From positions 3,621-67,620 of the forward strand of contig CAZBJL010000004.1 of the NCBI GenBank assembly GCA_964492195.1: 64,000 bases of DNA, given 5' to 3'. This document shows, in pieces, positions 5,788-64,000 of this stretch. This DNA is from an uncultured Candidatus Saccharibacteria bacterium. Its GTDB lineage: Bacteria; Patescibacteriota; Minisyncoccia; Phycocordibacterales; DATGWK01. Numbering within the stretch: the first letter of the stretch is position 1; every line of letters starts with the position of its first letter. The notes beneath the pieces were generated by a model. It was not told the origin of the DNA, searched no databases, and saw only the letters and a list, made by a program, of their open reading frames with translations. The position numbers and the translations under genes are program-made.

Positions 5788-5790
5788 ATT

Positions 5791-6952: not shown

Positions 6953-8206
6953 ATGCGTCAATCAACTCTCTTCACAAAAACTCGAAAAGAAGCTCCCAAA
7001 GATGAAGTGGCAAAAAATGCCGAACTTTTGATTCGAGCCGGGTTTGTTCACAAAGAATTAGCGGGCGTCTATTCTTTTTTGCCTCTTGGTCTTCGCGTTT
7101 TAAATAAAATTGTTGCAGTTATTAGAAAAGAAATGGTTGACCTTGGTGCCGAAGAAGTCTCTCTCGCTGCGATTCAAGATAAAAATACCTGGGAACAAAC
7201 AAATCGATGGAGCGATGCAGAAATGGACGTGTGGTTTAAAACTGAACTCAAAAATGGCACACAGGTTGGACTTGCTCCAACACACGAAGAGCCGCTCACA
7301 AAACTCATGAAGGATCACGTTCGTTCGTATCGTGATTTGCCTCGCTCCGTTTTTCAATTCCAAACAAAGTTTCGAAATGAAACTCGCGCAAAAAGTGGCA
7401 TCATGCGTGGCCGTGAATTTTTAATGAAAGATTTGTATTCTTTTTCTGCTGACGAAAAAAGTCATCAGGAATTCTACAATAAAGTTTCAGACGCATACCG
7501 CCGAATTTTCGATACAGTCGGAATTGGTTCAAAAACATTTTTAACGCGTGCGTCGGGCGGATCATTTTCAAAGTTCTCACACGAATTCCAAACGGTGTGC
7601 GACTCCGGCGAGGACACTATTTATACTCATGCGGATTCTGCTTTTGCGATCAATGAAGAAATTCATGGATCAGAAGAAGCCTTTGAAGGTACAAAAATTT
7701 CAAAAGAAGATTTCAAACCGCAAAAATCAATCGAAGTCGGTAACATTTTTAACCTCGGTACTCGTTTTTCTGAAGCACTCGGACTCACATTCCTCGATGA
7801 CAAGGGCAAACCTCAACCAGTAATTATGGGGAGCTACGGTATTGGTCCAGGAAGAGTAATGGGAACGATTGTAGAAGTGTTGTCCGACGAAAAGGGAATT
7901 GTGTGGCCAGAATCTGTTGCACCATTTACAGTTCATCTCATCGAAATTTCTGGAGCAGATGAAACTCACGCCGTTGCTGAAAAATTATATAAAACACTTA
8001 CACAGCTCGGACATGAAGTTTTGTACGACGATCGCGATCTTCGTCCCGGCGAAAAATTCGCTGACTCTGACCTCATCGGTATTCCGTATCGTGTCGTTGT
8101 GAGTGACAAAACAATAGCGGCTGGCGGTATCGAAGTTAAAAAAAGAATCGAAGAAAAAACAAACATTATTTCAGAAAAAGACCTCATCTCACTGCTTTCA
8201 GAATAA
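6953..8206 (+). CDS. proS: Prolyl-tRNA synthetase (short bacterial form)
   Basis: Class II aaRS motifs with the ProRS N-terminus (MRQSTLFTKTRKEAPKDEV.AELLIRAGF...FQFQTKFRNETR...GREFLMKD). The track ORF starts at GTG 6923; ATG 6953 aligns with ProRS starts. Confidence 0.9.
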   Translation: MRQSTLFTKTRKEAPKDEVAKNAELLIRAGFVHKELAGVYSFLPLGLRVLNKIVAVIRKEMVDLGAEEVSLAAIQDKNTWEQTNRWSDAEMDVWFKTELKNGTQVGLAPTHEEPLTKLMKDHVRSYRDLPRSVFQFQTKFRNETRAKSGIMRGREFLMKDLYSFSADEKSHQEFYNKVSDAYRRIFDTVGIGSKTFLTRASGGSFSKFSHEFQTVCDSGEDTIYTHADSAFAINEEIHGSEEAFEGTKISKEDFKPQKSIEVGNIFNLGTRFSEALGLTFLDDKGKPQPVIMGSYGIGPGRVMGTIVEVLSDEKGIVWPESVAPFTVHLIEISGADETHAVAEKLYKTLTQLGHEVLYDDRDLRPGEKFADSDLIGIPYRVVVSDKTIAAGGIEVKKRIEEKTNIISEKDLISLLSE

Positions 8207-9271: not shown

Positions 9272-10055
9272 AAAACCAAAGAAAAATGTTTTGATAATTT
9301 CCATGAGTGTTGCACTGTTTGTGATCGCTCTTATTTTTGCACTGGAAATTTTTGCTGGTAAGCCTGTTGGGAAGTTTTCACTTGCTGTTGGTGGGCCGGT
9401 CGCTTCTGTATACACGGCAGTCGAACACAAACTTTCTTTTGTTGCTGCATTCTCGAGTTCAAAAGGCTCGCTCATCCGCGAAAATGATCGTCTCACGCAG
9501 GAACTCAACAACATGCAAGCTCAACTTTTGAGTTTTGAGAGTTTATATAAAGAACATCAAGAATTACTTTCTGCATATGGAAGGATGCCCGTGTTTAACC
9601 CTACCGTGCTGGGGAATGTTATCGCTAAGCCGCCGCAGTCTCCATACGACATTCTTGTCGTTGATGTGGGAAGTAAAGACGGTGTCGGCGTGGGCGCCCG
9701 CGTATATGGTCTCGGTGGCCAGCCGATCGGTCGGGTAAGTGAGAGTGCGAATGCAACTGCAAAACTTGTACTTTTTTCAAGTAATGGGGAACAGACGCAG
9801 GCTATCGTAGAACGCACGGGAGCTACGATTGTCATTGTTGGAACTGGCGGTGGAAATATGGAAGCAGAAGTTTCTCCGGATATTGATATTGTAAAAAATG
9901 ACAGAATAATTCTTCCGGAATTCAATGGTGCGATCGTGGCGCTTGTTGCAGAGATTGATTCACGAGAGACAAGTGCGTCAAAACGAGTGTTGTTTAATGC
10001 TCCAACAAATATTTTTAATCTCCGTTTCGTTGAGATCGAAAGACTTACAAAATAA
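9243..10055 (+). CDS. mreC: Rod shape-determining protein MreC
   Basis: N-terminal TM helix, coiled-coil (LTQELNNMQAQLLSFESL), C-terminal beta-rich domain. Position is between mreB and mreD/PBP2. Confidence 0.75.
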   Translation: MKMTYLQKSRKPKKNVLIISMSVALFVIALIFALEIFAGKPVGKFSLAVGGPVASVYTAVEHKLSFVAAFSSSKGSLIRENDRLTQELNNMQAQLLSFESLYKEHQELLSAYGRMPVFNPTVLGNVIAKPPQSPYDILVVDVGSKDGVGVGARVYGLGGQPIGRVSESANATAKLVLFSSNGEQTQAIVERTGATIVIVGTGGGNMEAEVSPDIDIVKNDRIILPEFNGAIVALVAEIDSRETSASKRVLFNAPTNIFNLRFVEIERLTK

Positions 10056-10057
10056 AA

Positions 10058-10324
10058 ATGAGCATTCTTTTTCGAATTGCAGCTGACATTGTAATATTCA
10101 TCTCGATTTTCACGACACCGTGGTGGTTTTCTGTACTTCTTATATGTATTGTTATTTTTTGGTTTGAGTTTTTCTACGAATCACTTCTGTTCAGTTTCTT
10201 TTTAGATGGTTTCCACGGCATTCCTGGAATGACATTTTTTGGCATCAATACTTTTTTTACGACGGTCATTGGTGTGGTATTTCTCGTCTCTATTTTCTTG
10301 AAAACGAGGCTTAAATTCTATTAG
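10058..10324 (+). CDS. Small polytopic membrane protein, MreD-like by position
   Basis: 88 aa, 2-3 TM helices. Sits between mreC and PBP2, where mreD normally lies. Shorter than canonical MreD. Confidence 0.4.
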   Translation: MSILFRIAADIVIFISIFTTPWWFSVLLICIVIFWFEFFYESLLFSFFLDGFHGIPGMTFFGINTFFTTVIGVVFLVSIFLKTRLKFY

Positions 10325-10348
10325 TCATAAGTAAGGTAGAATCAAGGC

Positions 10349-12037
10349 ATGTTACGAAAGATTTCTCTCTATTTTAGACGGCGAAGAAAGATGGGTGAAA
10401 TAAACCCGGATGAAATTTTTATTGATTCAAGCAACCTTCCAGAATTCGATGTGCATCAGTTCGAAGGCCGACTTGAACAACCCATTACACGAAGGGCGAT
10501 TGTTCTTGTTTCGTTTTGTTTTGTGCTCGTTGCTGGAGTTTTTCTTTCTCGATTCTGGCTTTTGCAGATTCACAAAGGTGAAGCCTATGCAAAACAGAGT
10601 GAAATGAATCGACTTCGTAACACTGATATTTTTGCAAATCGGGGAGTTATTCTCGATCGAAATGGAATCGAACTCGCATCGAATGCGCTGTTTGAGGGTA
10701 CGTCTGACTTTGCACGTCGTGTCTATGCACCAATTCACGGCATTGCACACTTGATCGGCTATGTGAAATATCCAACAAAAGACAGCTCTGGTTTTTATTT
10801 TAGAACAAATTATGTGGGCGAAGACGGGCTCGAAAAAATATACGACGGTGTGTTGTCAGGAGAAAATGGCGTTCGAATTGTCGAAACTGATGCGCTGGGT
10901 AAAGTGCAGTCGCAAAGTGTTATTCGTCCTCCTGAAGATGGTAAAAGCGTGACGCTTACCATCGATTCTCGGCTCCAAGACAAAATTTACCGACTCATGG
11001 CATCAACGTCAGCGGATTACGGCTTTAGCGGTGGAACGGTAGCGATCATGAATGTTCATACAGGTGATCTTTTGTCCCTCGTAAGTTTTCCTGAATTTGA
11101 TTCAACAAAGCTTACCGAAGGTGACAGAGAGGCGATCAATGGATACCAAAATGATCCGAAAACCCCTTTTTTGAATCGTGCAGTTTCAGGACTTTTTACT
11201 CCTGGTTCGATTATAAAACCCATCGTTGCAATTGGTGCGCTGAACGAAAGAATCATTGATCCACAAAAGAAAATTTTAAGTACCGGCTCGATTTCAATTG
11301 CGAATCCATATTTTCCTGATAAGCCAAGTGTTTTTAAAGACTGGAAAGCGCACGGCTGGGTAGACATGCGACATGCAATCGCCGCGTCTTCTGACGTGTA
11401 TTTTTATGCTGTCGGCGGCGGCTTCGAAGATCAGCGCGGTCTTGGTATCGTAAATATTGAAAAATACATCAGGATGTTTGGGTTGGGAGAAAAAACGGGG
11501 ATTAATTTGTCTCACGAAAAAGAAGGAATCATTCCAAATCCAGAATGGAAAGAAGAAATGTTCGACGGTGACGTCTGGAGGCTCGGGGATACGTACAATA
11601 CCTCGATCGGTCAATATGGACTCCAGTTCACACCAATCCAGATCGTTCGCTATCTTGCTGCGATTGCCAATGAAGGAACATTACTCACACCAAGTCTCGT
11701 CCATGACGACGAAAACCCAACAAAGACAATTCCACTCAAAAAGGAGGATTTCGACATTATCCATGAAGGCATGAGGTTGGCGGTGCTCGAAGGGACGGCA
11801 AGCGGTGTGAACGTGCCGTATATCGATATTGCCGGAAAGACGGGAACTGCACAGATCGGTACCATAAAGCAGCTTGTGAATTCCTGGTCAGTTGGGTTCT
11901 TCCCATACGAAAACCCGACATATGCGTATGTTGTGCTTATGGAAAAAGGCGCCCAAAGTAACACCATTGGCGCGACATACGTCATGCGTCAGCTTCTTGA
12001 TTGGATGCATGTGAATACACCAGAATATTTGCAATAA
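10349..12037 (+). CDS. mrdA: Penicillin-binding protein 2 (elongasome transpeptidase)
   Basis: N-terminal TM helix, PBP dimerisation domain, transpeptidase motifs (SxxK in ...TPGSIIKP..., SxN, KTGT in AGKTGTAQ). Follows mreBCD. Confidence 0.85.
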   Translation: MLRKISLYFRRRRKMGEINPDEIFIDSSNLPEFDVHQFEGRLEQPITRRAIVLVSFCFVLVAGVFLSRFWLLQIHKGEAYAKQSEMNRLRNTDIFANRGVILDRNGIELASNALFEGTSDFARRVYAPIHGIAHLIGYVKYPTKDSSGFYFRTNYVGEDGLEKIYDGVLSGENGVRIVETDALGKVQSQSVIRPPEDGKSVTLTIDSRLQDKIYRLMASTSADYGFSGGTVAIMNVHTGDLLSLVSFPEFDSTKLTEGDREAINGYQNDPKTPFLNRAVSGLFTPGSIIKPIVAIGALNERIIDPQKKILSTGSISIANPYFPDKPSVFKDWKAHGWVDMRHAIAASSDVYFYAVGGGFEDQRGLGIVNIEKYIRMFGLGEKTGINLSHEKEGIIPNPEWKEEMFDGDVWRLGDTYNTSIGQYGLQFTPIQIVRYLAAIANEGTLLTPSLVHDDENPTKTIPLKKEDFDIIHEGMRLAVLEGTASGVNVPYIDIAGKTGTAQIGTIKQLVNSWSVGFFPYENPTYAYVVLMEKGAQSNTIGATYVMRQLLDWMHVNTPEYLQ

Positions 12038-53500: not shown

Positions 53501-54847
53501 CTATAAAGCCGGCTCAACGATAACTTTTATCTTGTCAGAGTTCTTTGGAAGTGTGAAGAACCAGACGGGGGTTATTGTGACATTTGCCTTCTCTATTGAG
53601 TCGAAATCTGCCAAACGAGCGCTTACATTAGACCTTTTTTGGCCAACCAAGCTGTCGGAAATTTGAACCTGGTCGATCTGCCAGACGAACTTTGCATTAC
53701 CAGCAAGCTTGAATGAGAGCGTTTTACTTGTTGCAGGATTAAAGGTGGCAATATTGTCTATTGAGAACGTAAGTGAATCGAGATTTGCTACATCAACATT
53801 TTTATTTTCACCACTGATTTGAAGATTGGTTAAGAATTTCGAAAGATCTTCTTTTGCAAAAATGATTCCGTAAATATCCCCTTTTTCTGTAATGAGCGCA
53901 GTTGAGGTACTTGTGTTGGCACCTTGAGGTAATTCTGCAAAGCTAAACGTTGAAGCGTTCTTGAATAAAATATGAGTGTCAGGAATCTGTGAAGCCAAAG
54001 TGTCCTGAAGGTCGTTCTTGAGCTTTGTTTCTATTGCGGCTTTTGCTGAAGCGGCGTCTGTAGGGGTAACTTTTTTAACTACCCCAGAAAAACCACCGGC
54101 AATAGGAGATGCGGGGTCAGATTTTGCTGAAAACTTTTCGAATCGAGGGTCACCTTTGAATCCAGGAATGGTGAAATCAGCAAGACCAATGTTGTACGAA
54201 GTTCCAGGCTGGTCAGCGTATACCGTTACCGCAATAGTTCCCGGAGTAGCGACACCGTTGGTTATTTTCTGTCCTGGCACGGTAACCTGGTCAGCAATTC
54301 TAAAAATGAGGCCTTCCGATGTTTCAAAACGGGTCTTTGCAATGAGAACTTGGGGTGAAGCGCTGTAGTTGTTGTAAATAACAACCTTGCCGGATGCTTT
54401 TTTATCTACTTTCTCTTCTCCACTGGCTCGGACCTCTTTGTTTGACTGGCGGCTCAAGGTGACGATTGTGTACGCAAGCTGGCCGTCTGTAGGTTCGAGA
54501 GCTGCAGTGCCAGAGATGTTTATAGGAAGGTTCGACTCTTTAGGGGTAACGGTAACGGTCGCTGATACAAAAAGGAATGAACCTGCGTAGAGAAAGACAA
54601 AAAGAATGGCGACAGCTCCTGCCCAAACCCAGATCTTCCTTGAACCCTTGCTTGTTTTAGAAGACTTCGGTGGAGTTTTTTTGATTGGTTTTTCTTGTAC
54701 TGCTTCTTCTGGAATCTTTTTTGTAATCACTTCCTTTGGAGCATCTTCGACAGGTGCAGCAAAATCTGATTTAGCATCAGGTAAAGGAATATTCCTGATT
54801 GAACGTCGGCTGCCTGGAACTATATCTTGTACAAATTTTTTAGGCAT
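53501..54847 (-). CDS. Bitopic membrane protein with Lys/Pro-rich cytoplasmic N-terminus and ~350-aa extracytoplasmic beta-rich domain, hypothetical
   Basis: TM helix VWAGAVAILFVFLYAGSFLFV after a ~70-aa basic N-terminus. Immediately downstream of the actin-like ATPase gene, with a 7-nt gap. Confidence 0.6.
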   Translation of the reverse strand: MPKKFVQDIVPGSRRSIRNIPLPDAKSDFAAPVEDAPKEVITKKIPEEAVQEKPIKKTPPKSSKTSKGSRKIWVWAGAVAILFVFLYAGSFLFVSATVTVTPKESNLPINISGTAALEPTDGQLAYTIVTLSRQSNKEVRASGEEKVDKKASGKVVIYNNYSASPQVLIAKTRFETSEGLIFRIADQVTVPGQKITNGVATPGTIAVTVYADQPGTSYNIGLADFTIPGFKGDPRFEKFSAKSDPASPIAGGFSGVVKKVTPTDAASAKAAIETKLKNDLQDTLASQIPDTHILFKNASTFSFAELPQGANTSTSTALITEKGDIYGIIFAKEDLSKFLTNLQISGENKNVDVANLDSLTFSIDNIATFNPATSKTLSFKLAGNAKFVWQIDQVQISDSLVGQKRSNVSARLADFDSIEKANVTITPVWFFTLPKNSDKIKVIVEPAL

Positions 54848-54854
54848 TATGATT

Positions 54855-56018
54855 TCATTTTACAAGAGTCGGATGTTGTTTGTAAACAATTTCACTGTGT
54901 GGAAGTCGGTTGTGAATGTAGATTGAAGAAAGCGCCACAAAAATATTTGGCATTTCGTCAGTACCGAACTCCGCAAACTGAGAAAGATTTGATCGAGAAA
55001 GAGAAATTGTGTTCGGAGTTTGTTTTTCGAGTATGTCTTTAAACACCGCGGAAATATTTTGATCTGAAATAAAGAAAGATCGCTGTGGCAAAAAATGTTC
55101 GTGGTCACTTCCCTTCTCCTGAACTGCCGTTTGGAGACATAATCGCCATTCTTCGCCAAAAGCTGCCACAAGTGCCTTCATTTTTTCCTTCATTTCAGCA
55201 TCGGCGGTGTCACTCGCATAGAGGTTGATGAGCGTACCAGCGAGTTCGGGGTGTGTGTCGAAATGCACCGCAACATTCCGTACAAGGTGGTTTTTGCCAA
55301 GCGGAAGTGAAATAACCGACGAGATTGAACCATGTCGAACAACAAGAACATCACTTACTTCACTCCCAATATCTATAAAAATAAAGTCTTCTTTGGGAGC
55401 AAAGAGCGGCACAATAACGTTCCAGGCAACAAAGGGAAGGCTGTGGAAGGTTACAGCCGTCGGATGGATCAACGTATGAATTTCAGAGTCGATTTTCTTG
55501 CACAAATCCTCGGAAGTGATTCCGGCATAGACCGAAAGATCAATTGATTTTGCTGATTTTCCATATGGATTAATGGTTTCGTAGCCATTTAACTTTATAT
55601 GAGATGGGATCTTTTCAATAAGAACGTCAGTGTCTCCGATATTGTTCTTAGAAATTGATTTGATCTGTTCATCGACAAGTTTTTCGATCATTTTTTGAGA
55701 CACAACAAAGGCAGACTCGCTTTTGAGACTTACCTGTTTAGAAAAAGAAGAAAACCACGGAGAAGCGAGCACAATGCTCACTGTGTGGATTCTTTTTCTG
55801 TGTTTTTCGTGAAGAGTTTTTACAACTGTCTGCAACGCGGCAAACATATGTGTAGACAAACTTTCTGCAGTGATTTTTTCTTTTACAGGAAACTGCGATT
55901 CATGAGTAAGCTCAATTTTTGGTAGTAAGCCCTTGGTGAATTGCACAACAGAGCCCGACACTCCGCCGCTTCCAATAAAAATAACGAGATCGTGTTCTTT
56001 TGAGCTTAGAAAGGACAT
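54855..56018 (-). CDS. Divergent actin-like (ASKHA) ATPase-fold protein (FtsA/PilM/Ppx-GppA-like)
   Basis: N-terminal LVIFIGSGGVSGSVV (phosphate-1-like, but the usual Asp is replaced by Phe). Later FIFIDIGSEVSDVLVVRHGSISSVISLPLGKNHL matches the DIGGGTTD / ...PLGG... region of FtsA/PilM/Ppx. Confidence 0.55.
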   Translation of the reverse strand: MSFLSSKEHDLVIFIGSGGVSGSVVQFTKGLLPKIELTHESQFPVKEKITAESLSTHMFAALQTVVKTLHEKHRKRIHTVSIVLASPWFSSFSKQVSLKSESAFVVSQKMIEKLVDEQIKSISKNNIGDTDVLIEKIPSHIKLNGYETINPYGKSAKSIDLSVYAGITSEDLCKKIDSEIHTLIHPTAVTFHSLPFVAWNVIVPLFAPKEDFIFIDIGSEVSDVLVVRHGSISSVISLPLGKNHLVRNVAVHFDTHPELAGTLINLYASDTADAEMKEKMKALVAAFGEEWRLCLQTAVQEKGSDHEHFLPQRSFFISDQNISAVFKDILEKQTPNTISLSRSNLSQFAEFGTDEMPNIFVALSSIYIHNRLPHSEIVYKQHPTLVK

Positions 56019-56042: not shown

Positions 56043-57830
56043 CTACGATAGAGTAGCTTTGATTCTCCTCACACCTGCAGACACGGCTTCTTCTTTTGCG
56101 ATTGTGAAAGTACCAAGTTCACTCGTACGTGTCACATGCGGGCCACCACAGATTTCTCTGCTGAAAATTCCCGTTTCTTCATTGCCAATTGTATAGACAC
56201 GAACAATATCTGCGTATTTTGCACCAAACACACCTTCGGCATTGAGTTCGCGTGCTTCCTGAAGCGGCATTTCTTTGAACGTAACTTCGAGGTCCTTCGC
56301 GATCACTGAATTAATAAGACCCTCAACTTCTTTCTTCTCAATATCAGTTAGTTTGGCGGTGTGGGCAAAATCAAATCGAAGCCGTTCAGGTGTAATGTTG
56401 CTTCCCTTTTGTTCAACATGACTTCCCAATACTTTTTTTAGAGCAGCGTTTAAAAGATGGGTTGCGGTGTGGTACTGAACAGATTTTTCACTTGTATCAG
56501 CAAGACCGCCTTTGAATTTTTGTTCGGAACTAGAGCGAGAAAGATCCTGGTGTTTCTTAAATTCATCATCGATTGCCGCAACATCAACAGTAATTCCCTG
56601 TTCTTTGGCCAATTCAATCGTAAGATCAACCGGAAAACCGAAACTTGAGAACAACGTGAAAACTTCTTTAGTAGAAATTGCGCCATTTCGAGACAATTTC
56701 GAAAATTCTTTAAGACCACCTGCGAGAGTTTTTCTGAATTTTATTTCTTCTTCAGAAATAACAGAAATAATTAGGTCAAAAACAGCAGAAATATTTTCGT
56801 AGACCTGTGCGTATGTTTTTGGAATAGTTTCAGCGATTTTTAAGATTCCACCTTCTTCTATTCCAAGGCTATCAGCAAATCGAACTGCTCTTCGGAGAAG
56901 ACGGCGAAGAATATAGCCCCGATCAGTGTTAGAAGGAGTAACTCCATCGGCAATCATAAAAACACTCGTACGAATATGGTCGGCGACGATTCTTTCAACA
57001 CGAATATCACTTTTTTGTGCCAATGCGCGAACTGCTTCAATAGTAGGAGCGAGCAAATCTGTTTCAAAAATACTGTCGACGTTTTGCATAATAATTGCGA
57101 GACGTTCGAGACCAGCTCCGGTGTCGACATTTTTCTGCTTCAATTTTCCAACGAGTACACCGTCCCGTTTCTCGTATTCCATAAAGACGTCGTTCCAAAT
57201 CTCTACAATTTTTTGTTCAGAATCAGCTTTGTTAAAAGCGTCAACATTTTCTAATTCACCAACGGTTCCGGTAATGTCGTAAAACATTTCGGTGCTTGGT
57301 CCGGTAGGGCCGGTCCACGTATCTTTTCCTTTTACAGACGGCCACCAGTTTGAATCCACACCTTTATAGAAAATTCGACTTTGTGGCAAACCAGCTTTCA
57401 TCCAAAGAGCAACAGACTCATCATCTCGTGGAATTTTTTCATCTCCTTCAAAAACAGTCACATACAGACGCGCAGGATCGAGTCCAAGACCTTCGGTTTT
57501 TGATGTTAAAAATTCATAACTCCACGCAATTGCTTCTTCTTTGAAATAACTGCCAAGAGACCAGTTTCCAAGCATTTCAAAAAAGGTGGCGTGAGTTTTG
57601 TCACCAATGTCTTCGATATCCGTCGTTCGAACGCATTTCTGAACATCGACAATTTTGTCGCCGTTTGGGTGTTTTTCACCCATAAGGTATGGCACGAGCG
57701 GCTGCATGCCGGCAGTATTAAAAAGGACGCTTGGGTCATTAACCGGGACAAGCGATGCGGATGGAATAATCGTATGCCCACGATTCTCAAAAAAAGTAAG
57801 GAATCGTTTTCTGATTTCGGACGATGTCAT
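56043..57830 (-). CDS. alaS: Alanyl-tRNA synthetase lacking the C-terminal C-Ala domain
   Basis: Start at MTSSEIRKRFLTFFENRGH... (the upstream track extension overlaps the udg gene). Catalytic and tRNA-recognition domains are present. Editing-domain motifs HTATHLL and CGGPHV are present. The protein ends about 600 aa in (...GVRRIKATLS). Confidence 0.9.
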   Translation of the reverse strand: MTSSEIRKRFLTFFENRGHTIIPSASLVPVNDPSVLFNTAGMQPLVPYLMGEKHPNGDKIVDVQKCVRTTDIEDIGDKTHATFFEMLGNWSLGSYFKEEAIAWSYEFLTSKTEGLGLDPARLYVTVFEGDEKIPRDDESVALWMKAGLPQSRIFYKGVDSNWWPSVKGKDTWTGPTGPSTEMFYDITGTVGELENVDAFNKADSEQKIVEIWNDVFMEYEKRDGVLVGKLKQKNVDTGAGLERLAIIMQNVDSIFETDLLAPTIEAVRALAQKSDIRVERIVADHIRTSVFMIADGVTPSNTDRGYILRRLLRRAVRFADSLGIEEGGILKIAETIPKTYAQVYENISAVFDLIISVISEEEIKFRKTLAGGLKEFSKLSRNGAISTKEVFTLFSSFGFPVDLTIELAKEQGITVDVAAIDDEFKKHQDLSRSSSEQKFKGGLADTSEKSVQYHTATHLLNAALKKVLGSHVEQKGSNITPERLRFDFAHTAKLTDIEKKEVEGLINSVIAKDLEVTFKEMPLQEARELNAEGVFGAKYADIVRVYTIGNEETGIFSREICGGPHVTRTSELGTFTIAKEEAVSAGVRRIKATLS

Positions 57831-57852
57831 GGAAGCATTATACGTGGCCTCG

Positions 57853-58479
57853 CTATACAAGAGAAGCGATGACTGCAAAATCTTTTTTAAGCCCCCCTTT
57901 TGTACCACCGTTATACAGAGCCACCGCTGGATGGTAGAGTGGAACAATTTTTACTTTTCCGTATGAAACAGTGGCTTCATAAATCTTGCCATGAGCCTGG
58001 GAAATCGGCAGGATTTCAGATTCAAGACCGAATTTTTTCATAATATATACCATCGAAAAACGCCCAAGCGTTGCAATTACTCTTGGCTTAATAATGTCGA
58101 TCTGACGGTCCAAAAATGGTCCGTAGAGTGCAATTTCATCTGGAAGTGGATCACGATTATTTGTCGGTCGATCCTTCACAATATTTGTTACATACACTGA
58201 TCCGCGCGGCATATTGATAGAAGCAAGAAGTTCATCCAAAATTCTACCCGACGCGCCGCAAAATGGCCGGCCGGTTTCAGCTTCATTTTTACCAGGAGCT
58301 TCGCCTATAAACATTATTTTTGCGAAATGGTCGCCTTCCCCAATTACAGGATGTGCCTTGTTTGCAATTCTCTCCTTATACAGTGGCGATACAGAAAAAT
58401 TTAATACGTCATCTTTCACTTGCTTCATACGCTCGTGACGATTTTCTACGTCTTTAGTTTGTTCGAGTTCGGACGTCAT
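57853..58479 (-). CDS. udg: Uracil-DNA glycosylase, family 4
   Basis: GEGDHFAKIMFIGEAPGKNEAETGRPFCGASGRIL: the family 4 UDG signature (GEAPG..E...G.PF.G.AG). Confidence 0.85.
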   Translation of the reverse strand: MTSELEQTKDVENRHERMKQVKDDVLNFSVSPLYKERIANKAHPVIGEGDHFAKIMFIGEAPGKNEAETGRPFCGASGRILDELLASINMPRGSVYVTNIVKDRPTNNRDPLPDEIALYGPFLDRQIDIIKPRVIATLGRFSMVYIMKKFGLESEILPISQAHGKIYEATVSYGKVKIVPLYHPAVALYNGGTKGGLKKDFAVIASLV

Positions 58480-58482
58480 ACA

Positions 58483-58758
58483 TTACTTTTTTCCAGAATT
58501 GGCTTTTTCTTTTCTTAAAATTTCTCTTTTGACTTCCATTCCGCCACGATTGTACCCGCCCATGCCGCCATCAGACCGAACAACACGATGGCATGGAATG
58601 TGTGGATCGTAGTTTGTTTTAAGAATACTTCCGACTGCACGATATGCTTTTGGCCGACCAGCCTTTTCTGCCACCAGTTTATATGTAAGCGTCTTACCTT
58701 CAGGAATTTTTCTTACGATTGCAAAAACTTTTTCTACAAATGGTGAAGTTGATTTCAT
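58483..58758 (-). CDS. ogt: Methylated-DNA--protein-cysteine methyltransferase, DNA-binding/active-site domain only (Ogt/MGMT family)
   Basis: 91 aa; HTH plus the active-site PCHRVV motif with the Cys retained. Confidence 0.8.
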   Translation of the reverse strand: MKSTSPFVEKVFAIVRKIPEGKTLTYKLVAEKAGRPKAYRAVGSILKTNYDPHIPCHRVVRSDGGMGGYNRGGMEVKREILRKEKANSGKK

Positions 58759-58762
58759 GAAC

Positions 58763-59614
58763 TTAGAAAAGTGGTTGATTTGAATCCTTAATTTTTTTCA
58801 CATTTTTGGGAACTGATTTTGTTTTCGGCTTTTTAGTTTCAGAGTGAGGAGTTATTTCTGGTAATCCAGCTTCGCTCTCAACAAGAATAATATATGAACA
58901 ATATTCGCAATCACTATTGCCTGTGGGAATTTTTTCAGACATCAAACACTCTTTAATATCGTGCAGCGTTTGATCAATCCACCCATCATTGCCTTCGTAG
59001 GGAATAACAGCAACATCAAATTCTAGTTTGCCATCGAACGCTTCCTTGTCCGTTTTGCCGTTTACATATACAAAATACCCAACATTAGAAACCTTGAAAT
59101 CATTCTGCCTAAAAAGCCATTGGTATATTTCCATTTGGCGTTTATATTGAATTTTCCACTCATCATCAAGCGTAATTTTGCCTTCTTTACTTGTTGCTTT
59201 GTAGTCAACGATAATTAATTCGCCGGAAGGAGTAACCCAGACATCATCAATACCTCCGCGGATAAAAAGATTGGTTGGTTTGTGGAGGGTCGCAATACCG
59301 CGTTTGAGAGCATCGCGCCACTCCTCCATTCTTTCATGCTTAAAAGGTACTGCATCAATCTTGTACGCTTTCATTAATGGATGAGCAGCTTGCTTTGTTC
59401 GATACACGTCGAATTCCTTTTTGAGAAGTAAATCGACAGCGCTGTTGAGAGCGAACGGTGGACCTTTCGGACGCGAAACACCTCTACAGCTATCGAGATA
59501 AAAACATCGCTGACACTGCGTAAAAAGCTCGATTTTTGTGCGGCTTAATTTGAATGGATCTTTTGATTTTCTGTCAAAAAGGTACCATTGTCTCTTTTTT
59601 GCAGGAAACGGCAT
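58763..59614 (-). CDS. Cas4/RecB-like PD-(D/E)xK nuclease with Fe-S cluster cysteines (standalone)
   Basis: N-terminal Cys cluster (CQRCFYLDSC). GGIDDVW...IIVDYKAT (D...D.K core). QYKRQMEIYQWL (QxxxY). C-terminal Cys (C...CEYC). No CRISPR array or other cas genes in the window. Confidence 0.65.
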   Translation of the reverse strand: MPFPAKKRQWYLFDRKSKDPFKLSRTKIELFTQCQRCFYLDSCRGVSRPKGPPFALNSAVDLLLKKEFDVYRTKQAAHPLMKAYKIDAVPFKHERMEEWRDALKRGIATLHKPTNLFIRGGIDDVWVTPSGELIIVDYKATSKEGKITLDDEWKIQYKRQMEIYQWLFRQNDFKVSNVGYFVYVNGKTDKEAFDGKLEFDVAVIPYEGNDGWIDQTLHDIKECLMSEKIPTGNSDCEYCSYIILVESEAGLPEITPHSETKKPKTKSVPKNVKKIKDSNQPLF

Positions 59615-59620
59615 GTAAAA

Positions 59621-60451
59621 TTAAATATTGTTTACTTCCTCAACTATTTTTTCTGCACGATCTTTTGGTAAACCAGCATCTATGAGGATTGAGGTGTTAT
59701 TGCGAATTTGTTTGCAGAGCACAATTCCTTGTTGAAGGAGCGATTTCAATTCCCCACTATGGATTTCAGTAAGACACGTAATGGGCATGAGGTCACCGTC
59801 TTCGATCATAGATTGCAAACTTACGTCACCCGGATAATTCCAGCCGATCATTGTCATGTTTTTGCAGAGTCCGTATTCGATCGCAGTGGAAGTAAAACCA
59901 GTGTTGGTGATTAGCCACGCTTCGTTCAGTGTTCGGCGTTTATTGCCGTAAAAATGCGTCACTTCAAGCAAATCATCGAATCTTGCCTTTACGTAAAGCG
60001 CAACCTTCAAATCGCATTTCATTCCACGCTGATTGTGAAATTTTGCTTCACACATAATAAGTTTTTTATCGTTCCAGGCAACAACGTCAACTTCATGCTC
60101 AACACAACCACCTTTCACAATTTGATTTGTTTCCGCAGAATAGCCTTGGCTTCTAAAAATTTCAGCGACATACTTTTCAAATGGAAATCCGGAAGGACCA
60201 AGAGCAGAAACGGCTTGTCGCATTCCGTATCGATATGAAGCAGGAGTTTGAAATTTATGCAAAAGGAAAAAGGCGTGTTTGTAGATTTGGGCGGTCGTCG
60301 TACCATCCACTAATTCCTTTTGAACGTGGTCGATGATTTTACTAACAATTTCAGGACTTGCTTTCGCCGCTGTAAGCGATTTCTCGAGCTTACTTGGGTC
60401 AAACTGTTCCAATTGGCCATTGGCCTTCAAAACATTCGGTATATTGGTCAT
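59621..60451 (-). CDS. ATP-cone domain fused to a restriction-endonuclease-like (Mrr_cat-type PD-(D/E)xK) domain
   Basis: Residues ~5-90: VLKANGQLEQFDPSKLEKSLTAA...IVSKIIDHVQKEL...TTAQIYKHAFFLL (ATP-cone pattern). Then GYSAETNQIVKGGCVEHEVDVVAWNDKKLIMCEAKFHN (D/E...ExK endonuclease core). Confidence 0.6.
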   Translation of the reverse strand: MTNIPNVLKANGQLEQFDPSKLEKSLTAAKASPEIVSKIIDHVQKELVDGTTTAQIYKHAFFLLHKFQTPASYRYGMRQAVSALGPSGFPFEKYVAEIFRSQGYSAETNQIVKGGCVEHEVDVVAWNDKKLIMCEAKFHNQRGMKCDLKVALYVKARFDDLLEVTHFYGNKRRTLNEAWLITNTGFTSTAIEYGLCKNMTMIGWNYPGDVSLQSMIEDGDLMPITCLTEIHSGELKSLLQQGIVLCKQIRNNTSILIDAGLPKDRAEKIVEEVNNI

Positions 60452-60460
60452 GTTTTTATT

Positions 60461-61456
60461 TTACCTTAAATAGAGTTGTTTGTTTTTCACATGTTCAGAA
60501 AATGTCGAAGCATAATGCATCTTCCCCGCACCATCTGACAAGAAATAGTAATACGTGGTTTTCTCTGGGGTAATTGTCGCAAGGATAGAATCAAGTCCTG
60601 GATTCGCAATCGGTGTTGGCGGAAGCCCAGGATTTTTGTAGACGTTATACGGAGAATCATCAGCAAGGTCAGCTCGGGTAAGTTCCGCGGTTGTTTTGCC
60701 GTTAATGTATTTAAACGCAACATCAACTTGAAGAGGCATTCCTTCATCAATTCGTTTCCAGAGAATACCAGCAATAATTCGTCGAGTTTCGAAATCTCGC
60801 GCTTCAGTTTCGACAATCGACGCCATCGTAATAATGTCATCCACACTTTTTCCAAATTCTATAATTTCTTTTTCGTGAAGTTTTATATGAACGTCAAAAT
60901 TAACTTTCATGGTTTCGATCGCTTTTTTCGATGTCACGTTTGGAGCAAAAAAGTATGTGTCTGGAAATAAATACCCTTCCGGAGCGGTCAGAAGAAACGT
61001 TTCAATATCAAAATGAGGCAAACGACGGACAAGCAACTGCCCAATTTCAAATTTATTAAGACCTTCCGGGATCGTAATTTTTACGGGCTGTATGTTGAAT
61101 TTGCCGTGCACAACTCTCTCGGCAATAGAATACGCGGACAGCGGCTTCTCAAACATATAATCCCCTGCAATAACTCCAGAACCTTCAAGAAAAATACCAC
61201 CGACAATGGCCTCAAAAGCTAATTCGGAGCGAATATATCCTTTTGATCTCAAGGATTTTGCAATTTCTGAAAGAGTCTGGCCACTTTCTATTGTAAAAAT
61301 TTCATCGGATGTAAACGCATCGGACGGAGCGATCAGAAAATAAAGCACGATACATACGAGAAACAGAGCAAAAACCACGCCAACAAATATCTGAAAGCGA
61401 GAAGATACTCTGAAATCCCGGTACGACTGAAATTGATTCATGAGTCGATCCATCAC
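60461..61456 (-). CDS. mltG: Endolytic murein transglycosylase MltG (YceG-like)
   Basis: N-terminal TM, YceG domain with ...DSPYNVYKNPGLPPTPIANPG... signature. Confidence 0.85.
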   Translation of the reverse strand: MMDRLMNQFQSYRDFRVSSRFQIFVGVVFALFLVCIVLYFLIAPSDAFTSDEIFTIESGQTLSEIAKSLRSKGYIRSELAFEAIVGGIFLEGSGVIAGDYMFEKPLSAYSIAERVVHGKFNIQPVKITIPEGLNKFEIGQLLVRRLPHFDIETFLLTAPEGYLFPDTYFFAPNVTSKKAIETMKVNFDVHIKLHEKEIIEFGKSVDDIITMASIVETEARDFETRRIIAGILWKRIDEGMPLQVDVAFKYINGKTTAELTRADLADDSPYNVYKNPGLPPTPIANPGLDSILATITPEKTTYYYFLSDGAGKMHYASTFSEHVKNKQLYLR

Positions 61457-61458
61457 AT

Positions 61459-62688
61459 TTAAATCGGCAAATTAGCTGGAGCTTCGCTTTTCTTAGAACC
61501 AATTTTAGTAAGAGTTGGAGTACCAACAACCTTGCCTGGCAAATGGAAGATAGTCGCGATTTCTTCTGTCGTAAGGATGAACGGTTTAGCCATGATGTAT
61601 TTGTATGGAATCTGGAAGAAAGATCGGAGTTTGTAGGCATTGAGAAGGCTTATTTCGCGCGCACGCTGGCGATGCTGACGGAAATCCTGCCACGGGTAAT
61701 CGAAACCAGTTCCGCCTCCTATCCTGATTTCATTCAAAGACTGGGATCCGTATTGCCTAAAACTACCAATAAGCCCGGTAATACCGATAGGGTCAAATGC
61801 ATCCTTTCTCGCAATATAAAAACCCCTGATTCCAACTTCAAAAGGTAGCTTCGATAAGCTTCGTTCCAATGCAGCGATAACATCTTTCTCACCAGAAGTT
61901 GGGGCGCGTTTTCCAGCTCCTTCATCATCCCCACCACTAATGTCTTCTATCTTCTTTTTGATTTCTTTTTTGGCCTTGTCCGTCCAATCAGGCCTTGCAA
62001 ACACAGCGTCGTCTTTCACACTCATTTTTCGATGAGCCTGAATCAAAATTTGAATCCAAACCTGCTCTCCGGCTTTAATGCTGCCTAAAAATTCCAACAC
62101 AGACGACATTGGATCAATTTTTGACTCTTCTTCTTGCTCCTTATCCAAACCATAGTCGATATATGTTTTTATTGGATAAATATCAGGCTTTTTTAATTTA
62201 AACGTTAGACCAACAAGAGACATCTCGCTTGGATCAACAAAAACTTTTTTGGTGTAGTCTTCAGTTTCGTAGATTTCAACACCCGGATATTGAGCGTAAA
62301 ATTGGGATTCAATTAATTGTCTGAATCTTGGCTGGGTCCAGATAAAAAAACGAACATTTCCTTCAATGGAAACTATTTCGAGAGAAAACCACGGTCTATA
62401 TTTCCCCTTCACAAATGTAGAAAGATAATCACTCGCACCTCCTTGAAACAGGGAGGTAATAATCATTTCCATTGCCGCAGGAGATTTAAACACGTCGCGG
62501 GGCAGTTTTATTTCAAGCAAAATACCACCGGCTTTCACTATTGCATTTGTCCGAACATATTTAAGCCAGATGGATATAAACATTCCAAGAAGCAATATCG
62601 GGAGCCACACTGGTGACGTTTGAAACAAAAGATGTATAACGACACCTAAAAAATTGGGTCTAAATGCAGGGAGAAGATCATTGAGCAT
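61459..62688 (-). CDS. Hypothetical membrane protein (409 aa: two N-terminal TM helices plus ~340-aa cytoplasmic domain)
   Basis: No Walker A or other recognisable catalytic motif. Tightly packed (2-nt gap) upstream of mltG. Confidence 0.6.
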   Translation of the reverse strand: MLNDLLPAFRPNFLGVVIHLLFQTSPVWLPILLLGMFISIWLKYVRTNAIVKAGGILLEIKLPRDVFKSPAAMEMIITSLFQGGASDYLSTFVKGKYRPWFSLEIVSIEGNVRFFIWTQPRFRQLIESQFYAQYPGVEIYETEDYTKKVFVDPSEMSLVGLTFKLKKPDIYPIKTYIDYGLDKEQEEESKIDPMSSVLEFLGSIKAGEQVWIQILIQAHRKMSVKDDAVFARPDWTDKAKKEIKKKIEDISGGDDEGAGKRAPTSGEKDVIAALERSLSKLPFEVGIRGFYIARKDAFDPIGITGLIGSFRQYGSQSLNEIRIGGGTGFDYPWQDFRQHRQRAREISLLNAYKLRSFFQIPYKYIMAKPFILTTEEIATIFHLPGKVVGTPTLTKIGSKKSEAPANLPI

Positions 62689-62780: not shown

Positions 62781-63830
62781 TTAAGCTAACGAGTACCGAT
62801 TCTGTTTGTCTTTTTTGAAGAATTTTGAATTCTGGAGGTTCACAAGAATGGTGTTTGGTTTCACGTATCGTTCCGTAAGTACCTTCTCAATGATTTTTTC
62901 CTTTGTAAGCGGACCATCCTTTTCGAGAATCTTTTTGATGACGTCTTTTACAACACCGCTCATATATCCCCACTCTGCGAGCGCATAGAGACCACGACCA
63001 ACAAGAACAAAACGAGGATCTTTAATGAGTTCGTTGTGTGTTGTTGCAACGTGCGCTTTTTTATTGAACACTTCTGTGATCAAACGAGCAACTTCACGGA
63101 AATGAATTGGAGAACCATGCTTTCGAATAACGAGAAACGCGTAATCTCGAACACCACGAGCATTGATGTTTGAAGATCCTGATTTACCCCATTCACCGAG
63201 CGGGTTTTTATTCAAAGACTTTGACATCCAGAGCCAACGCTTGATGACTTCTTCATTTTTGTACTCTTCGGAAACGTCTTTAATGTAAGAAAGGAATGAT
63301 TCGATGATTGTTGATTCTGGAACGATCGCATCGTCGTCGAGATCACTGTAAATCTTTCGGAGTGTTTCGTGAATTTTTTCGGCAAGCTTGTTGTCGATAT
63401 GCCAATGAGTTTTGAACTCTTCGTCTTCTTTATATTTTTTGAAATCTTCACCAACAACAAGGAGGAAATGAGTATGGTTTTGAGTAGATTTATCAGAAGA
63501 AAATTTATTTAAGAGGTCGTGCTCGGAAAGTACGCCACCAAGTCCAGAAAGATGCTGTTTCAATTCCTGAAACGCCTTCGTTTCTTTTTCGTACTCTTTT
63601 GATTTTCGAATATTGGTAATCGAGTGGTTTTCAATCTGACGAACTCGCTCACGAGTGATGCCGTATTTTTTACCAATTGATTCGAGTGTCATTTTCTTTG
63701 TTTCGGTACCGAGACCGTAACGGCTTGAAACAACATCGCGTCCGCGCTCAGAGAGAACTCCGAGTAAACGTTTCGTTACCTGCTTTGGATTAAATGACGG
63801 TGTTATTTGTTTTGTTTTCTTTTCACTCAT
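62781..63830 (-). CDS. Sigma-70 region 4 domain fused to a C-terminal HARE-HTH domain (putative transcription regulator)
   Basis: Start at ATG (MSEKKTKQ...); the track's TTG-start extension runs through the promoter. Region-4-like VLSERGRDVVSSRYGLGTETKKMTLESIGKKYGITRERVRQIENHSITNIRK. C-terminal HARE-HTH-like ...AFLVIRKHGSPIHFREVARLITE...RFVLVGRGLYALAEWGY. Confidence 0.65.
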   Translation of the reverse strand: MSEKKTKQITPSFNPKQVTKRLLGVLSERGRDVVSSRYGLGTETKKMTLESIGKKYGITRERVRQIENHSITNIRKSKEYEKETKAFQELKQHLSGLGGVLSEHDLLNKFSSDKSTQNHTHFLLVVGEDFKKYKEDEEFKTHWHIDNKLAEKIHETLRKIYSDLDDDAIVPESTIIESFLSYIKDVSEEYKNEEVIKRWLWMSKSLNKNPLGEWGKSGSSNINARGVRDYAFLVIRKHGSPIHFREVARLITEVFNKKAHVATTHNELIKDPRFVLVGRGLYALAEWGYMSGVVKDVIKKILEKDGPLTKEKIIEKVLTERYVKPNTILVNLQNSKFFKKDKQNRYSLA

Positions 63831-63865
63831 GATTTTTAATCGGCCTTTAATATAATTACGACAAA

Positions 63866-63894
63866 TTTTACTATCATTGCTGAAATTAGTCAAT
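63866..63894 (-). promoter_or_regulatory. Sigma-70-type promoter (TTGACT-17-TAAAAT) for the sigma-r4/HARE-HTH gene
   Basis: On the minus strand: ttgact (63894..63889), 17-nt spacer, taaaat (63871..63866), about 35 nt upstream of the ATG. Confidence 0.4.
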
Positions 63895-64000
63895 ACGTCT
63901 TGACATAAAGGCAAAATTTAGCCAATTACGAAGTTAATCAACTTATTTTTAACAAAAATCACCTTCTTGATTGTGGCTCCATTAAGCCATTTTTTTACAT

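Follow-up and report, generated by a model that had tools for sequence, protein, structure and literature searches.

The question raised by this locus is whether four adjacent genes, which encode a uracil-DNA glycosylase (UDG), a short MGMT/Ogt-type protein (MGMT), a RecB-like nuclease and an ATP-cone nuclease, constitute a dedicated DNA-repair or defence operon. An earlier note on the 64-kb stretch of DNA analysed here (the window) had described them as a compact four-gene operon and as a repair or defence module rather than a random neighbourhood.

Gene arrangement and transcription

The four open reading frames lie on the minus strand at small distances from each other, as had been noted, with gaps of 6, 4 and 3 nt in the direction ATP-cone nuclease to UDG (Table 1). 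Such spacing is the local norm: 27 of the 54 same-strand gene pairs in the window have junctions of 10 nt or less, the median same-strand gap is about 10.5 nt and the coding share is approximately 95%. The tight spacing extends past the quartet to DUF8128, MltG and AlaRS, and the quartet is itself part of a series of 10 or more genes on one strand (sigma-like, DUF8128, MltG, the quartet, AlaRS, FtsA-like and onward). A scan of the region from 53 to 64 kb revealed promoter- and terminator-like sites at the counts expected from shuffling, with no excess, and operon boundaries can therefore not be assigned to the quartet. Given a genome that is approximately 95% coding and in which the median gap is some 10 nt, the quartet is most likely transcribed together with the flanking genes. 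The earlier description of an operon holds in that the four genes run in one direction and almost certainly share a transcript, but not in that they form a unit with boundaries or spacing of its own.

Table 1 Genes of the quartet and its flanks; positions are those of the window.
Gene or product	Position	Strand	Remarks
Sigma70_r4/HARE-HTH protein	62781..63914	-	opens the co-directional run inside the window
DUF8128 protein	61459..62688	-	2-nt gap to MltG; precomputed PF26449 match in L087-L090
MltG/YceG endolytic transglycosylase	60461..61456	-	PF02618, 231 bits; 9-nt gap upstream of the ATP-cone nuclease gene
ATP-cone nuclease	59621..60451	-	276 aa
RecB-like nuclease	58763..59614	-	283 aa
MGMT	58483..58758	-	91 aa
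UDG	57853..58479	-	208 aa
Alanyl-tRNA synthetase (AlaRS), short form	56043..57830	-	tRNA-synt_2c, 420 bits; 22 nt past UDG
FtsA-like gene (387 aa) and 448-aa gene	53501..56018	-	string goes on to infA, ribosomal protein genes and rpoA

The AlaRS gene starts with an ATG at 57830. The real start of the Sigma70_r4/HARE-HTH gene is probably near 63830, as its relatives measure 345–351 aa. A search of the window for MnmA found no such gene, although it is usual in relatives, being present in 69 of 80 species-level loci of the ATP-cone nuclease.

The four DNA-acting proteins

The Pfam profiles UDG, DNA_binding_1, PDDEXK_1, ATP-cone and Mrr_cat all matched the respective proteins above their curated cut-offs, and in both nuclease cores the catalytic residues are intact upon alignment and invariant in homologues, as are the active-site motifs of the UDG (GEAPG, HPA) and of the MGMT (PCHRV). 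Substrates of the four enzymes, and any control by nucleotides, are predictions from sequence.

The UDG belongs to family 4, as had been proposed, on the basis of its Pfam UDG score (103.6 bits), a TIGR00758 (UDG family 4) score of 179.1 against a cut-off of 125.3, the presence of both motif A (GEAPG) and motif B (HPA), and a best PDB match to the Sulfolobus tokodaii UDG (4ZBX, E = 4e-43). The score for the archaeal equivalog NF040953 (196.8) is under the cut-off of 250. Motifs A and B are shared with the family-4 UDGa enzymes of S. tokodaii (4ZBX) and T. thermophilus (1UI0). Unlike in those enzymes, all four [4Fe-4S] cysteines are absent; the equivalent positions are F, S, D and Y, so that the protein lacks the cluster ligands, and in 43/43 Paceibacteria UDG orthologues they are L/F, S, D and Y. 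Given its family and intact active site, the enzyme would remove uracil from DNA and thus begin base-excision repair. In L098 and L085 the UDG gene is on the opposite strand, outside the conserved gene string described below.

The 91-aa MGMT is an active-site domain with a PCHRV motif, an assignment made in the earlier note and borne out by PF01035 (98.4 bits), TIGR00589 (ogt; 76.4 against a cut-off of 46) and alignment to residues 96–178 of Ada-C (1SFE, E = 7e-15). Aligned to Ada-C and MGMT, it retains the Tyr, Arg and Asn positions as well as PCHRV, with Cys56 as the active-site cysteine. It does not have the two-domain Ogt/MGMT architecture: the C-terminal domain stands alone, and full-length equivalogs score far below their cut-offs. 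It thus shares the Arg finger, Tyr/Asn and PCHRV with canonical Ogt/MGMT but lacks their N-terminal domain. In its single-domain size the protein resembles the ATL proteins; unlike these it retains the acceptor cysteine, and it is nearer to MGMTs than to ATLs. The family and the intact active site suggest stoichiometric transfer of O6-alkyl groups from guanine to Cys56.

The third protein is a member of the RecB family of PD-(D/E)xK nucleases (PDDEXK_1, 47.2 bits; cut-off 22). The motifs D123/D124, D137-Y-K139 and Q160...Y164 are invariant in homologues, as are the cysteine pairs C34-x2-C37 and C236-x2-C239, while C223 is 90% conserved. By sequence the four-cysteine site fits Zn and an Fe-S cluster equally, and its spacing is unlike that of Cas4 and AddB. 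The fold matches Cas4, Dna2, AdnAB and Exo5. The protein is akin in fold to the iron-staple nucleases Cas4, AddB, Dna2 and Exo5, but it stands alone, in housekeeping contexts, and its C-terminal tail (residues 255–283) is disordered and basic. Of the earlier designation as a Cas4/RecB-like nuclease with N- and C-terminal cysteines, the RecB-family core and the cysteines stand; membership of Cas4 is rejected because the curated score is low (TIGR00372, 22.4 against a cut-off of 65 bits, with no Pfam Cas_Cas4 match at E ≤ 0.01), the match to the Cas4 structure 4IC1 is marginal (E = 0.056) and no tandem or CRISPR-like arrays were found within the 64-kb window, where the neighbours of the gene are housekeeping genes. 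The cysteine pattern also differs, being CxxC...CxxC here and C...CxxCx5C in Cas4. A nuclease of the RecB/Cas4/Dna2 fold with a four-cysteine metal site or Fe-S staple may trim 5′ single-stranded ends or flaps in repair or recombination.

The fourth protein comprises an ATP-cone (residues ~1–85), a Mrr-type PD-(D/E)xK domain (~88–205) and an AF1548-like C-terminal HhH domain (~223–276), with Pfam scores of 30.0 for ATP-cone (PF03477; cut-off 25.8), 30.6 for Mrr_cat (21) and 27.0 for AF1548-like_C (23.9). The fusion of an ATP-cone to a Mrr-like endonuclease core, recognised in the earlier note, is supported by these scores, by the ATP-cone fold and by an intact catalytic set (E92, D122, E135-x-K137) that is invariant among homologues; D122 and E135-x-K137 are invariant across 26 CPR and 14 mixed archaeal/CPR sequences. 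It is not a Mrr type IV restriction endonuclease, as the Mrr_N domain is absent, the N-terminus is the ATP-cone and the catalytic-domain profile alone matches. The Mrr_cat core followed by the AF1548-like C-terminal domain, together with homology to 1Y88, places the protein in the AF1548-type family. Counterparts of D122, E135 and K137 are D38, E51 and K53, predicted as the catalytic residues of AF1548 (PMC1821046), and AF1548 was predicted to be a restriction-type nuclease in the 2007 GOS paper. The 1Y88 chain was crystallised without the ATP-cone that is present in the full-length protein here. The protein is putatively a metal-dependent D-ExK nuclease with a non-specific, nucleic-acid-binding HhH module.

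A variable slot in a conserved Paceibacteria gene string

Conservation of the gene order was assessed in 80 fetched species-level loci of the ATP-cone nuclease (43–57% identity), of which 55 were eligible for upstream and 60 for downstream counts. The commonest neighbours in the 60 species-level relatives with enough flank are housekeeping genes. Upstream, MltG is present in 49/55, DUF8128 in 48/55 and the sigma-like gene in 47/55 eligible loci; AlaRS is found no more than 9 kb downstream in 52/60. The string reads (LeuRS), sigma-like/HARE-HTH, DUF8128, MltG, (MnmA, in most relatives), ATP-cone nuclease, a variable slot, UDG, AlaRS, FtsA-like, the 448-aa gene, infA, rpsM/K/D, rpoA and rplQ, and continues onward. 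In relatives the slot also holds unrelated genes, for MgtC, PCMT, M3 peptidases, SOD, EamA, DUF7282, a YfbR-like HD protein, ExoX and SWIB.

The companion genes are variable. Near the ATP-cone nuclease gene, UDG is found in 35/60, the RecB-like gene in 15/60 and MGMT in 13/60 loci, and all three occur downstream in just 4/60, so the quartet is not co-conserved in relatives. Viewed from the RecB-like gene, approximately 90% of 80 metagenomic loci are without any other gene of the quartet (the ATP-cone nuclease is near it in 8, MGMT in 5 and UDG in 5), and its close homologues (55–76% identity) occur in dozens of unrelated contexts. All 8 of the RecB-like loci with an ATP-cone nuclease are inside the same housekeeping backbone.

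These data indicate that the quartet is a lineage-specific stretch of a long, conserved housekeeping string rather than the repair or defence module of the earlier note, and not a discrete four-gene operon, as site counts show no excess, the gaps run on into the flanks and co-occurrence is 4/60. The reading that we favour, and consider probable, is that of four separately acting DNA-maintenance enzymes in the variable slot of a vertically inherited Paceibacteria string. Against it, four consecutive DNA-acting genes are unlikely to be pure coincidence where repair genes are few, and parts of the arrangement recur. The quartet order is identical to that of the window in L029 and L072 and is interrupted by one extra gene in L087, L019, L065, L077 and L168. 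The nearest relatives (L087, L089) have it, and it recurs in two or more Paceibacteria clades that lie well apart, among them the branch that is deepest in the tree of the ATP-cone nuclease. In L061 and L074 the arrangement ATP-cone nuclease...RecB-like-MGMT outlasts the loss of the backbone, and the RecB-like and MGMT genes, seen jointly in 10/60 loci, appear to be gained or lost together (odds ratio 28, Fisher p = 8.5e-6, not corrected for phylogeny).

The same observations are what would be expected of a co-selected DNA-damage module, an ancestral Paceibacteria order retained because co-expression is advantageous. The UDG and MGMT would detect uracil and O6-alkylguanine and both nucleases would handle the resulting intermediates: in long-patch repair the RecB/Dna2-like enzyme would remove 5′ flaps, and the ATP-cone nuclease would make incisions controlled by the nucleotide pool. 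All four products being DNA enzymes is in keeping with this, as is an MGMT-RecB-like adjacency independent of the backbone in L167, but that lone adjacency is close to the chance prediction over approximately 70 loci; for the same reason the adjacencies in L167, L098 and L085 were not counted as support. We regard such a module as unlikely, since occupancy is low and variable, unrelated genes (MgtC, DUF7282, PCMT, peptidases) are often interleaved and the partners are absent for most RecB-like homologues and for the archaeal ATP-cone nucleases, none of whose 5 loci has a UDG, MGMT or RecB-like gene. Presence of the RecB-like gene is, moreover, not associated with that of UDG (odds ratio 0.53, p = 0.37), and UDG adjoins AlaRS (13/37) as frequently as the ATP-cone nuclease gene (11/46). 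A degree of selection for expressing DNA-care genes together is possible, as ExoX-like and YfbR-like 5′-deoxynucleotidase genes are sometimes found in the slot of relatives. More tentatively, alongside the gating of the nuclease considered below, the RecB-like-MGMT pair and the UDG without Fe-S cysteines may be what is left of a DNA-care cluster of ancestral Paceibacteria.

The ATP-cone nuclease family

The ATP-cone nuclease family is ancient, common to Archaea and CPR, and catalogued. It is present in at least 596 Paceibacteria species genomes and, in most of the 80 loci studied, occupies a constant place among housekeeping genes, whereas archaeal AF1548 members have no such fixed position. 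Its NCBI labels are 'ATP cone domain-containing protein' and 'restriction endonuclease'. The fusion is consequently not the novelty, peculiar to this locus, that it had been taken for, but an old family named in databases. The literature searched on ATP-cone nucleases and AF1548 contained no description of the fusion and no biochemically characterised member of the family, the GOS prediction for AF1548 being the single pertinent item.

To our knowledge, the ATP-cone has previously been recognised solely in ribonucleotide reductases (RNR) and NrdR, as their (d)ATP sensor, where its output is a reductase or a Zn-ribbon repressor; here the output domain is a predicted nuclease. In NrdA, we take K9, R10, K21 and T55 to be the nucleotide-contacting residues, as per RNR structures. 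K9, K21 and T53 are invariant in the ATP-cone nucleases, while the position of NrdA Arg10 is Ala in CPR members and many archaea, unlike the cones of RNR/NrdR (KRDG motif) and those of Archaeoglobi, which have Arg or, in some of the latter, Lys. It is conceivable, and we put it forward tentatively, that in this family the ATP-cone allosterically gates the PD-(D/E)xK nuclease.

A related proposal is that the enzyme is a nucleotide-salvage nuclease that breaks down nucleic acid at adenine-nucleotide shortage, with its repair neighbours there by synteny alone. CPR organisms rely on nucleotide salvage, and the distribution in Archaea and CPR fits this, as do the invariant cone residues, a YfbR-like 5′-deoxynucleotidase gene after the ATP-cone nuclease gene in 12 Paceibacteria loci and a Bathyarchaeia contig where the nuclease gene and the last part of an AMP-phosphorylase gene overlap, the latter gene being preceded by an IF-2B-family (ribose-1,5-bisphosphate-isomerase-like) gene. 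That is the one such archaeal context, the remaining ones being unrelated (CorA/DUF389, an amino-acid permease, an RM system), and with the Ala substitution at the Arg10 position a salvage role in place of repair appears rather improbable.

An anti-phage or restriction-like system, whose Mrr-like and Cas4-like nucleases would be directed against foreign (e.g. uracil-containing or modified) DNA under nucleotide gating, is very improbable: dNTP-pool sensing through an ATP-cone would, as a concept, suit abortive infection well and both nucleases gave weak domain-level PADLOC matches (Cas4, 7.8e-8; ZorD Mrr-like domain, 7e-4), but the PADLOC-DB 2.0 scan yielded no system-level match, and no hits for UDG, MGMT or DUF8128, which led us to reject this reading, and the locus is without methyltransferase, specificity or sensor partner, CRISPR array, mobile or defence-island genes, being flanked by MltG/MnmA and AlaRS. 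Both nucleases, furthermore, behave as core, vertically inherited genes, the RecB-like family being 55–76% identical across CPR. Nothing in these results points to the four enzymes working as a single machine or as a defence system.

As a module the quartet is of little importance; it exemplifies how an operon can be mimicked by synteny that is conserved among streamlined CPR genomes. The Paceibacteria UDGs, a uniform family-4 clade with none of the four Fe-S cysteines, provide a natural experiment on the purpose of the cluster. The complete ATP-cone::nuclease::HhH architecture emerges as a conserved trait of the AF1548 family, from Archaeoglobi through to Paceibacteria. If the cone controls the nuclease, ATP-cone allostery would reach past nucleotide synthesis into nucleic-acid cleavage, and DNA or RNA cleavage would be coupled to the adenine-nucleotide pool, a coupling that might serve nucleotide salvage, or repair linked to replication, in organisms unable to synthesise nucleotides de novo.

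Gene content and genomic setting

The earlier note had described the four ORFs as a compact repair or defence operon. All four were located exactly where it placed them, and a Pfam profile search of the four proteins put every proposed domain above its curated threshold. The UDG protein matched Pfam UDG (103.6 bits) and the NCBIfam family-4 UDG model TIGR00758 (179 bits, cut-off 125); the MGMT protein matched DNA_binding_1 (98.4 bits) and the NCBIfam ogt model (76 bits, cut-off 46), and the RecB-like nuclease matched PDDEXK_1 (47.2 bits). The ATP-cone nuclease contains an ATP-cone (30.0 bits, cut-off 25.8), Mrr_cat (30.6 bits, cut-off 21) and a third domain unnamed in the earlier note, AF1548-like_C (27.0 bits, cut-off 23.9).

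Coordinates of the quartet and of two upstream genes in the window
Feature	Position	Strand	Length	Remark
UDG ORF	57853-58479	minus	208 aa	
MGMT ORF	58483-58758	minus	91 aa	
RecB-like nuclease ORF	58763-59614	minus	283 aa	
ATP-cone nuclease ORF	59621-60451	minus	276 aa	
DUF8128	61459-62688	minus		near-constant upstream neighbour
sigma70_r4/HARE-HTH	62781-63914	minus	377 aa	as listed, TTG start

The description as a compact operon holds for the small gaps (6, 4 and 3 nt) on one strand, but such gaps are ordinary in the window, which is about 95% coding and has 27 of its 54 same-strand junctions at ≤10 nt. On the same strand, MltG (9-nt gap), DUF8128 (2-nt gap) and the sigma70_r4/HARE-HTH gene lie 5′ of the quartet, and AlaRS (22 nt to its ATG at 57830), an FtsA-like gene and a 448-aa gene lie 3′; promoter- and terminator-like motifs did not exceed their frequency in shuffled sequence, and the quartet lacks boundaries of its own. 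Because its relatives have 345-351 residues, the sigma70_r4/HARE-HTH ORF as listed is probably about 28 aa overlong. The longest alaS ORF begins at a TTG and overlaps the UDG gene by 95 nt (window 57831-57947, minus strand); the ATG (MTSSEIRKRF...) agrees with the Pfam domain start and with the length of the relatives (~590-600 aa). Catalytic and SAD domains make up the whole of the window AlaRS, which is of the short form.

The two nucleases, MGMT and UDG

Residues 94-274 of the ATP-cone nuclease are homologous to PDB 1Y88 (AF1548) in a sequence search (E = 4e-25), and the AlphaFold model, with 26 homologues as input, has a mean pLDDT of 90.5. In the alignment E92, D122 and E135-x-K137 are invariant; D122, E135 and K137 correspond to the three catalytic residues that the GOS paper (PMC1821046) predicted for AF1548. 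Invariance from Archaea to CPR extends to C116, H139 and C196, which may make up a further metal site or a redox site. In the cone, K9, G12, K21 and T53 do not vary across Archaea and CPR; at the position matching Arg10 of Escherichia coli NrdA, CPR proteins have Ala and those of Archaeoglobi have Arg or Lys. The roles of these residues are presumably those in ribonucleotide reductase structures.

The structural-genomics protein AF1548 (PDB 1Y88) was solved as a ~199-aa chain lacking the N-terminus. The Archaeoglobus protein itself, P0243, found with the crystallised sequence as query and 99% identical to it, is a 265-aa protein with an N-terminal ATP-cone, Mrr_cat and AF1548_C, and 1Y88 is therefore an N-terminally truncated product. 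The same three-domain architecture occurs in Geoglobus, Ferroglobus, Korarchaeota, Bathyarchaeia, Aenigmarchaeota, Altiarchaeales and Nanoarchaeota; many archaeal phyla and CPR bacteria have it in common. The fusion of ATP-cone and endonuclease is not new, being already present in archaeal database entries, where NCBI names the homologues 'ATP cone domain-containing protein' or 'Restriction endonuclease/ATP cone domain'. No published description or test of it was found in the literature searched, and the ATP-cone papers found concern, in the parts seen, only ribonucleotide reductases and NrdR.

The RecB-like nuclease has invariant D123/D124, D137-x-K139 and Q160...Y164 motifs in the homologue alignment, together with the invariant pairs C34-x2-C37 and C236-x2-C239 (C223 is 90% conserved). 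These features make it a RecB-family nuclease by fold, putatively of the iron-staple type; Cas4 identity was rejected at 22.4 bits against the NCBIfam equivalog threshold of 65. No repeat array was found in the 64-kb window.

In the 91-aa MGMT, which aligns with residues 96-178 of 1SFE (the C-terminal domain of Ada-C; E = 7e-15), PCHRV is retained, as are Tyr, Arg and Asn at their positions; the protein is nearer to true MGMTs than to ATL proteins. The best match of the UDG is the Sulfolobus tokodaii family-4 enzyme (4ZBX, E = 4e-43), and the protein has both motif A (GEAPG) and motif B (HPA) in intact form. Unlike the S. tokodaii and Thermus thermophilus enzymes, which have four Cys ligands, the window UDG has none: the Fe-S cysteine positions are occupied by F, S, D and Y. 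The 43 Paceibacteria orthologues recovered from the 80 fetched loci all have L/F, S, D and Y there and form a uniform family-4-type clade lacking the cluster cysteines.

Conservation of the arrangement among relatives

A scan over one genome per GTDB species gave at least 596 genomes with a relative of the ATP-cone nuclease; 80 loci were fetched and their neighbours compared by tblastn and ORF clustering. The conserved backbone reads sigma-like, DUF8128, MltG, MnmA, ATP-cone nuclease, a variable slot, UDG, AlaRS, FtsA-like, 448-aa gene, infA, rpsM, rpsK, rpsD, rpoA, rplQ, rplM and rpsI. Among eligible loci, AlaRS (52/60), MltG (49/55), DUF8128 (48/55) and sigma-like (47/55) are frequent neighbours, followed by UDG (35/60), the RecB-like nuclease (15/60) and MGMT (13/60). 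In 69/80 relatives the gene immediately before the ATP-cone nuclease is MnmA (tRNA 2-thiouridylase); the window and the relatives closest to it (L087-L089) lack it there, and no copy is detectable anywhere in the 64-kb window. Other slot genes include MgtC, DUF7282, PCMT, M3 peptidases, Fe/Mn SOD, EamA, a YfbR-like HD protein and an ExoX-like exonuclease.

Co-conservation of the quartet was not borne out, all three partners being present in 4/60 loci. At 68-71% identity, L089 keeps the quartet, with an rve-family transposase before alaS (10002-10964), L087 keeps it with a SWIB-domain gene (7756-8010) between the RecB-like nuclease and MGMT, and L088 is missing MGMT. UDG adjoins AlaRS (13/37) about as often as it adjoins the ATP-cone nuclease (11/46). 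In a reverse test of 80 metagenomic loci with RecB-like proteins 55-76% identical, an ATP-cone nuclease was nearby in 8, MGMT in 5 and UDG in 5; all those with an ATP-cone nuclease sit in the same backbone and the others in dozens of unrelated contexts. The partners were beside none of five archaeal ATP-cone nucleases (Ferroglobus, Geoglobus, the Bathyarchaeia contig and two others). Outside the Paceibacteria backbone a single case of MGMT adjoining the RecB-like gene was found, with MGMT directly upstream on the same strand (L167, ~5650-6705); this is about the chance expectation over ~70 loci.

The simplest reading is that the order ATP-cone nuclease, RecB-like nuclease, MGMT, UDG, AlaRS is ancestral in Paceibacteria and is decaying through loss and relocation, as is the remaining string. 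Weak selection for co-expression of DNA-care genes is a rather unlikely alternative. The RecB-like nuclease and MGMT share the slot in 10/60 loci (odds ratio 28, Fisher p = 8.5e-6, uncorrected for phylogeny), a neighbour-joining tree of the ATP-cone nuclease places the pair in two or more separated clades, one of them the deepest, and L061 and L074 retain ATP-cone nuclease...RecB-like-MGMT despite loss of the backbone; RecB-like presence, however, is not associated with that of UDG (odds ratio 0.53, p = 0.37). A defence module is highly improbable, as both nucleases look conserved and vertically inherited at housekeeping positions, the quartet locus has no methylase or sensor partner, and PADLOC gave domain-level echoes only for the nucleases (Cas4, 7.8e-8; ZorD Mrr-like, 7e-4) and no match for UDG, MGMT or DUF8128. 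As an arrangement of members of known families, the neighbourhood is ordinary and lineage-specific.

Proposed activities and a possible nucleotide link

We infer, with reasonable confidence, four independent enzymes co-transcribed within a long housekeeping polycistron. Identities, conserved residues, folds and gene order were observed directly; what the enzymes act on, their co-transcription and the nucleotide control are inferred. The UDG, without Fe-S cysteines, would excise uracil; the one-domain MGMT would carry out suicide dealkylation of O6-alkylguanine; the Cys-stapled RecB-family nuclease would trim 5′ single-stranded ends or flaps; and adenine nucleotides would act via the cone on the activity or assembly of the HhH-tethered D-ExK nuclease.

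In the Bathyarchaeia contig (L173, 3467-5873) an AMP-phosphorylase-type gene (Glycos_trans_3N/Glycos_transf_3/PYNP_C), preceded by an IF-2B-family gene, overlaps at its 3′ end with the gene for the ATP-cone nuclease; this group, a single observation, resembles the archaeal nucleotide-salvage (AMP) pathway. A YfbR-like deoxynucleotidase gene follows the ATP-cone nuclease in 12 Paceibacteria loci. Mg2+-transport genes repeatedly adjoin it: MgtC is found downstream of it in about 12 loci of Paceibacteria (L019, L021, L033, L043, L056, L058, L060, L061, L063, L065, L071), and in Ferroglobus (L171) CorA sits upstream, stop and start codons overlapping, DUF389 being next. The AMP phosphorylase, YfbR-like and Mg-transport genes are three thin hints towards a nucleotide-gated or salvage role. 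Tentatively, the AF1548 proteins of Paceibacteria and many Archaea could be a very widespread family of nucleases gated by (d)ATP, with a possible tie to nucleotide salvage.
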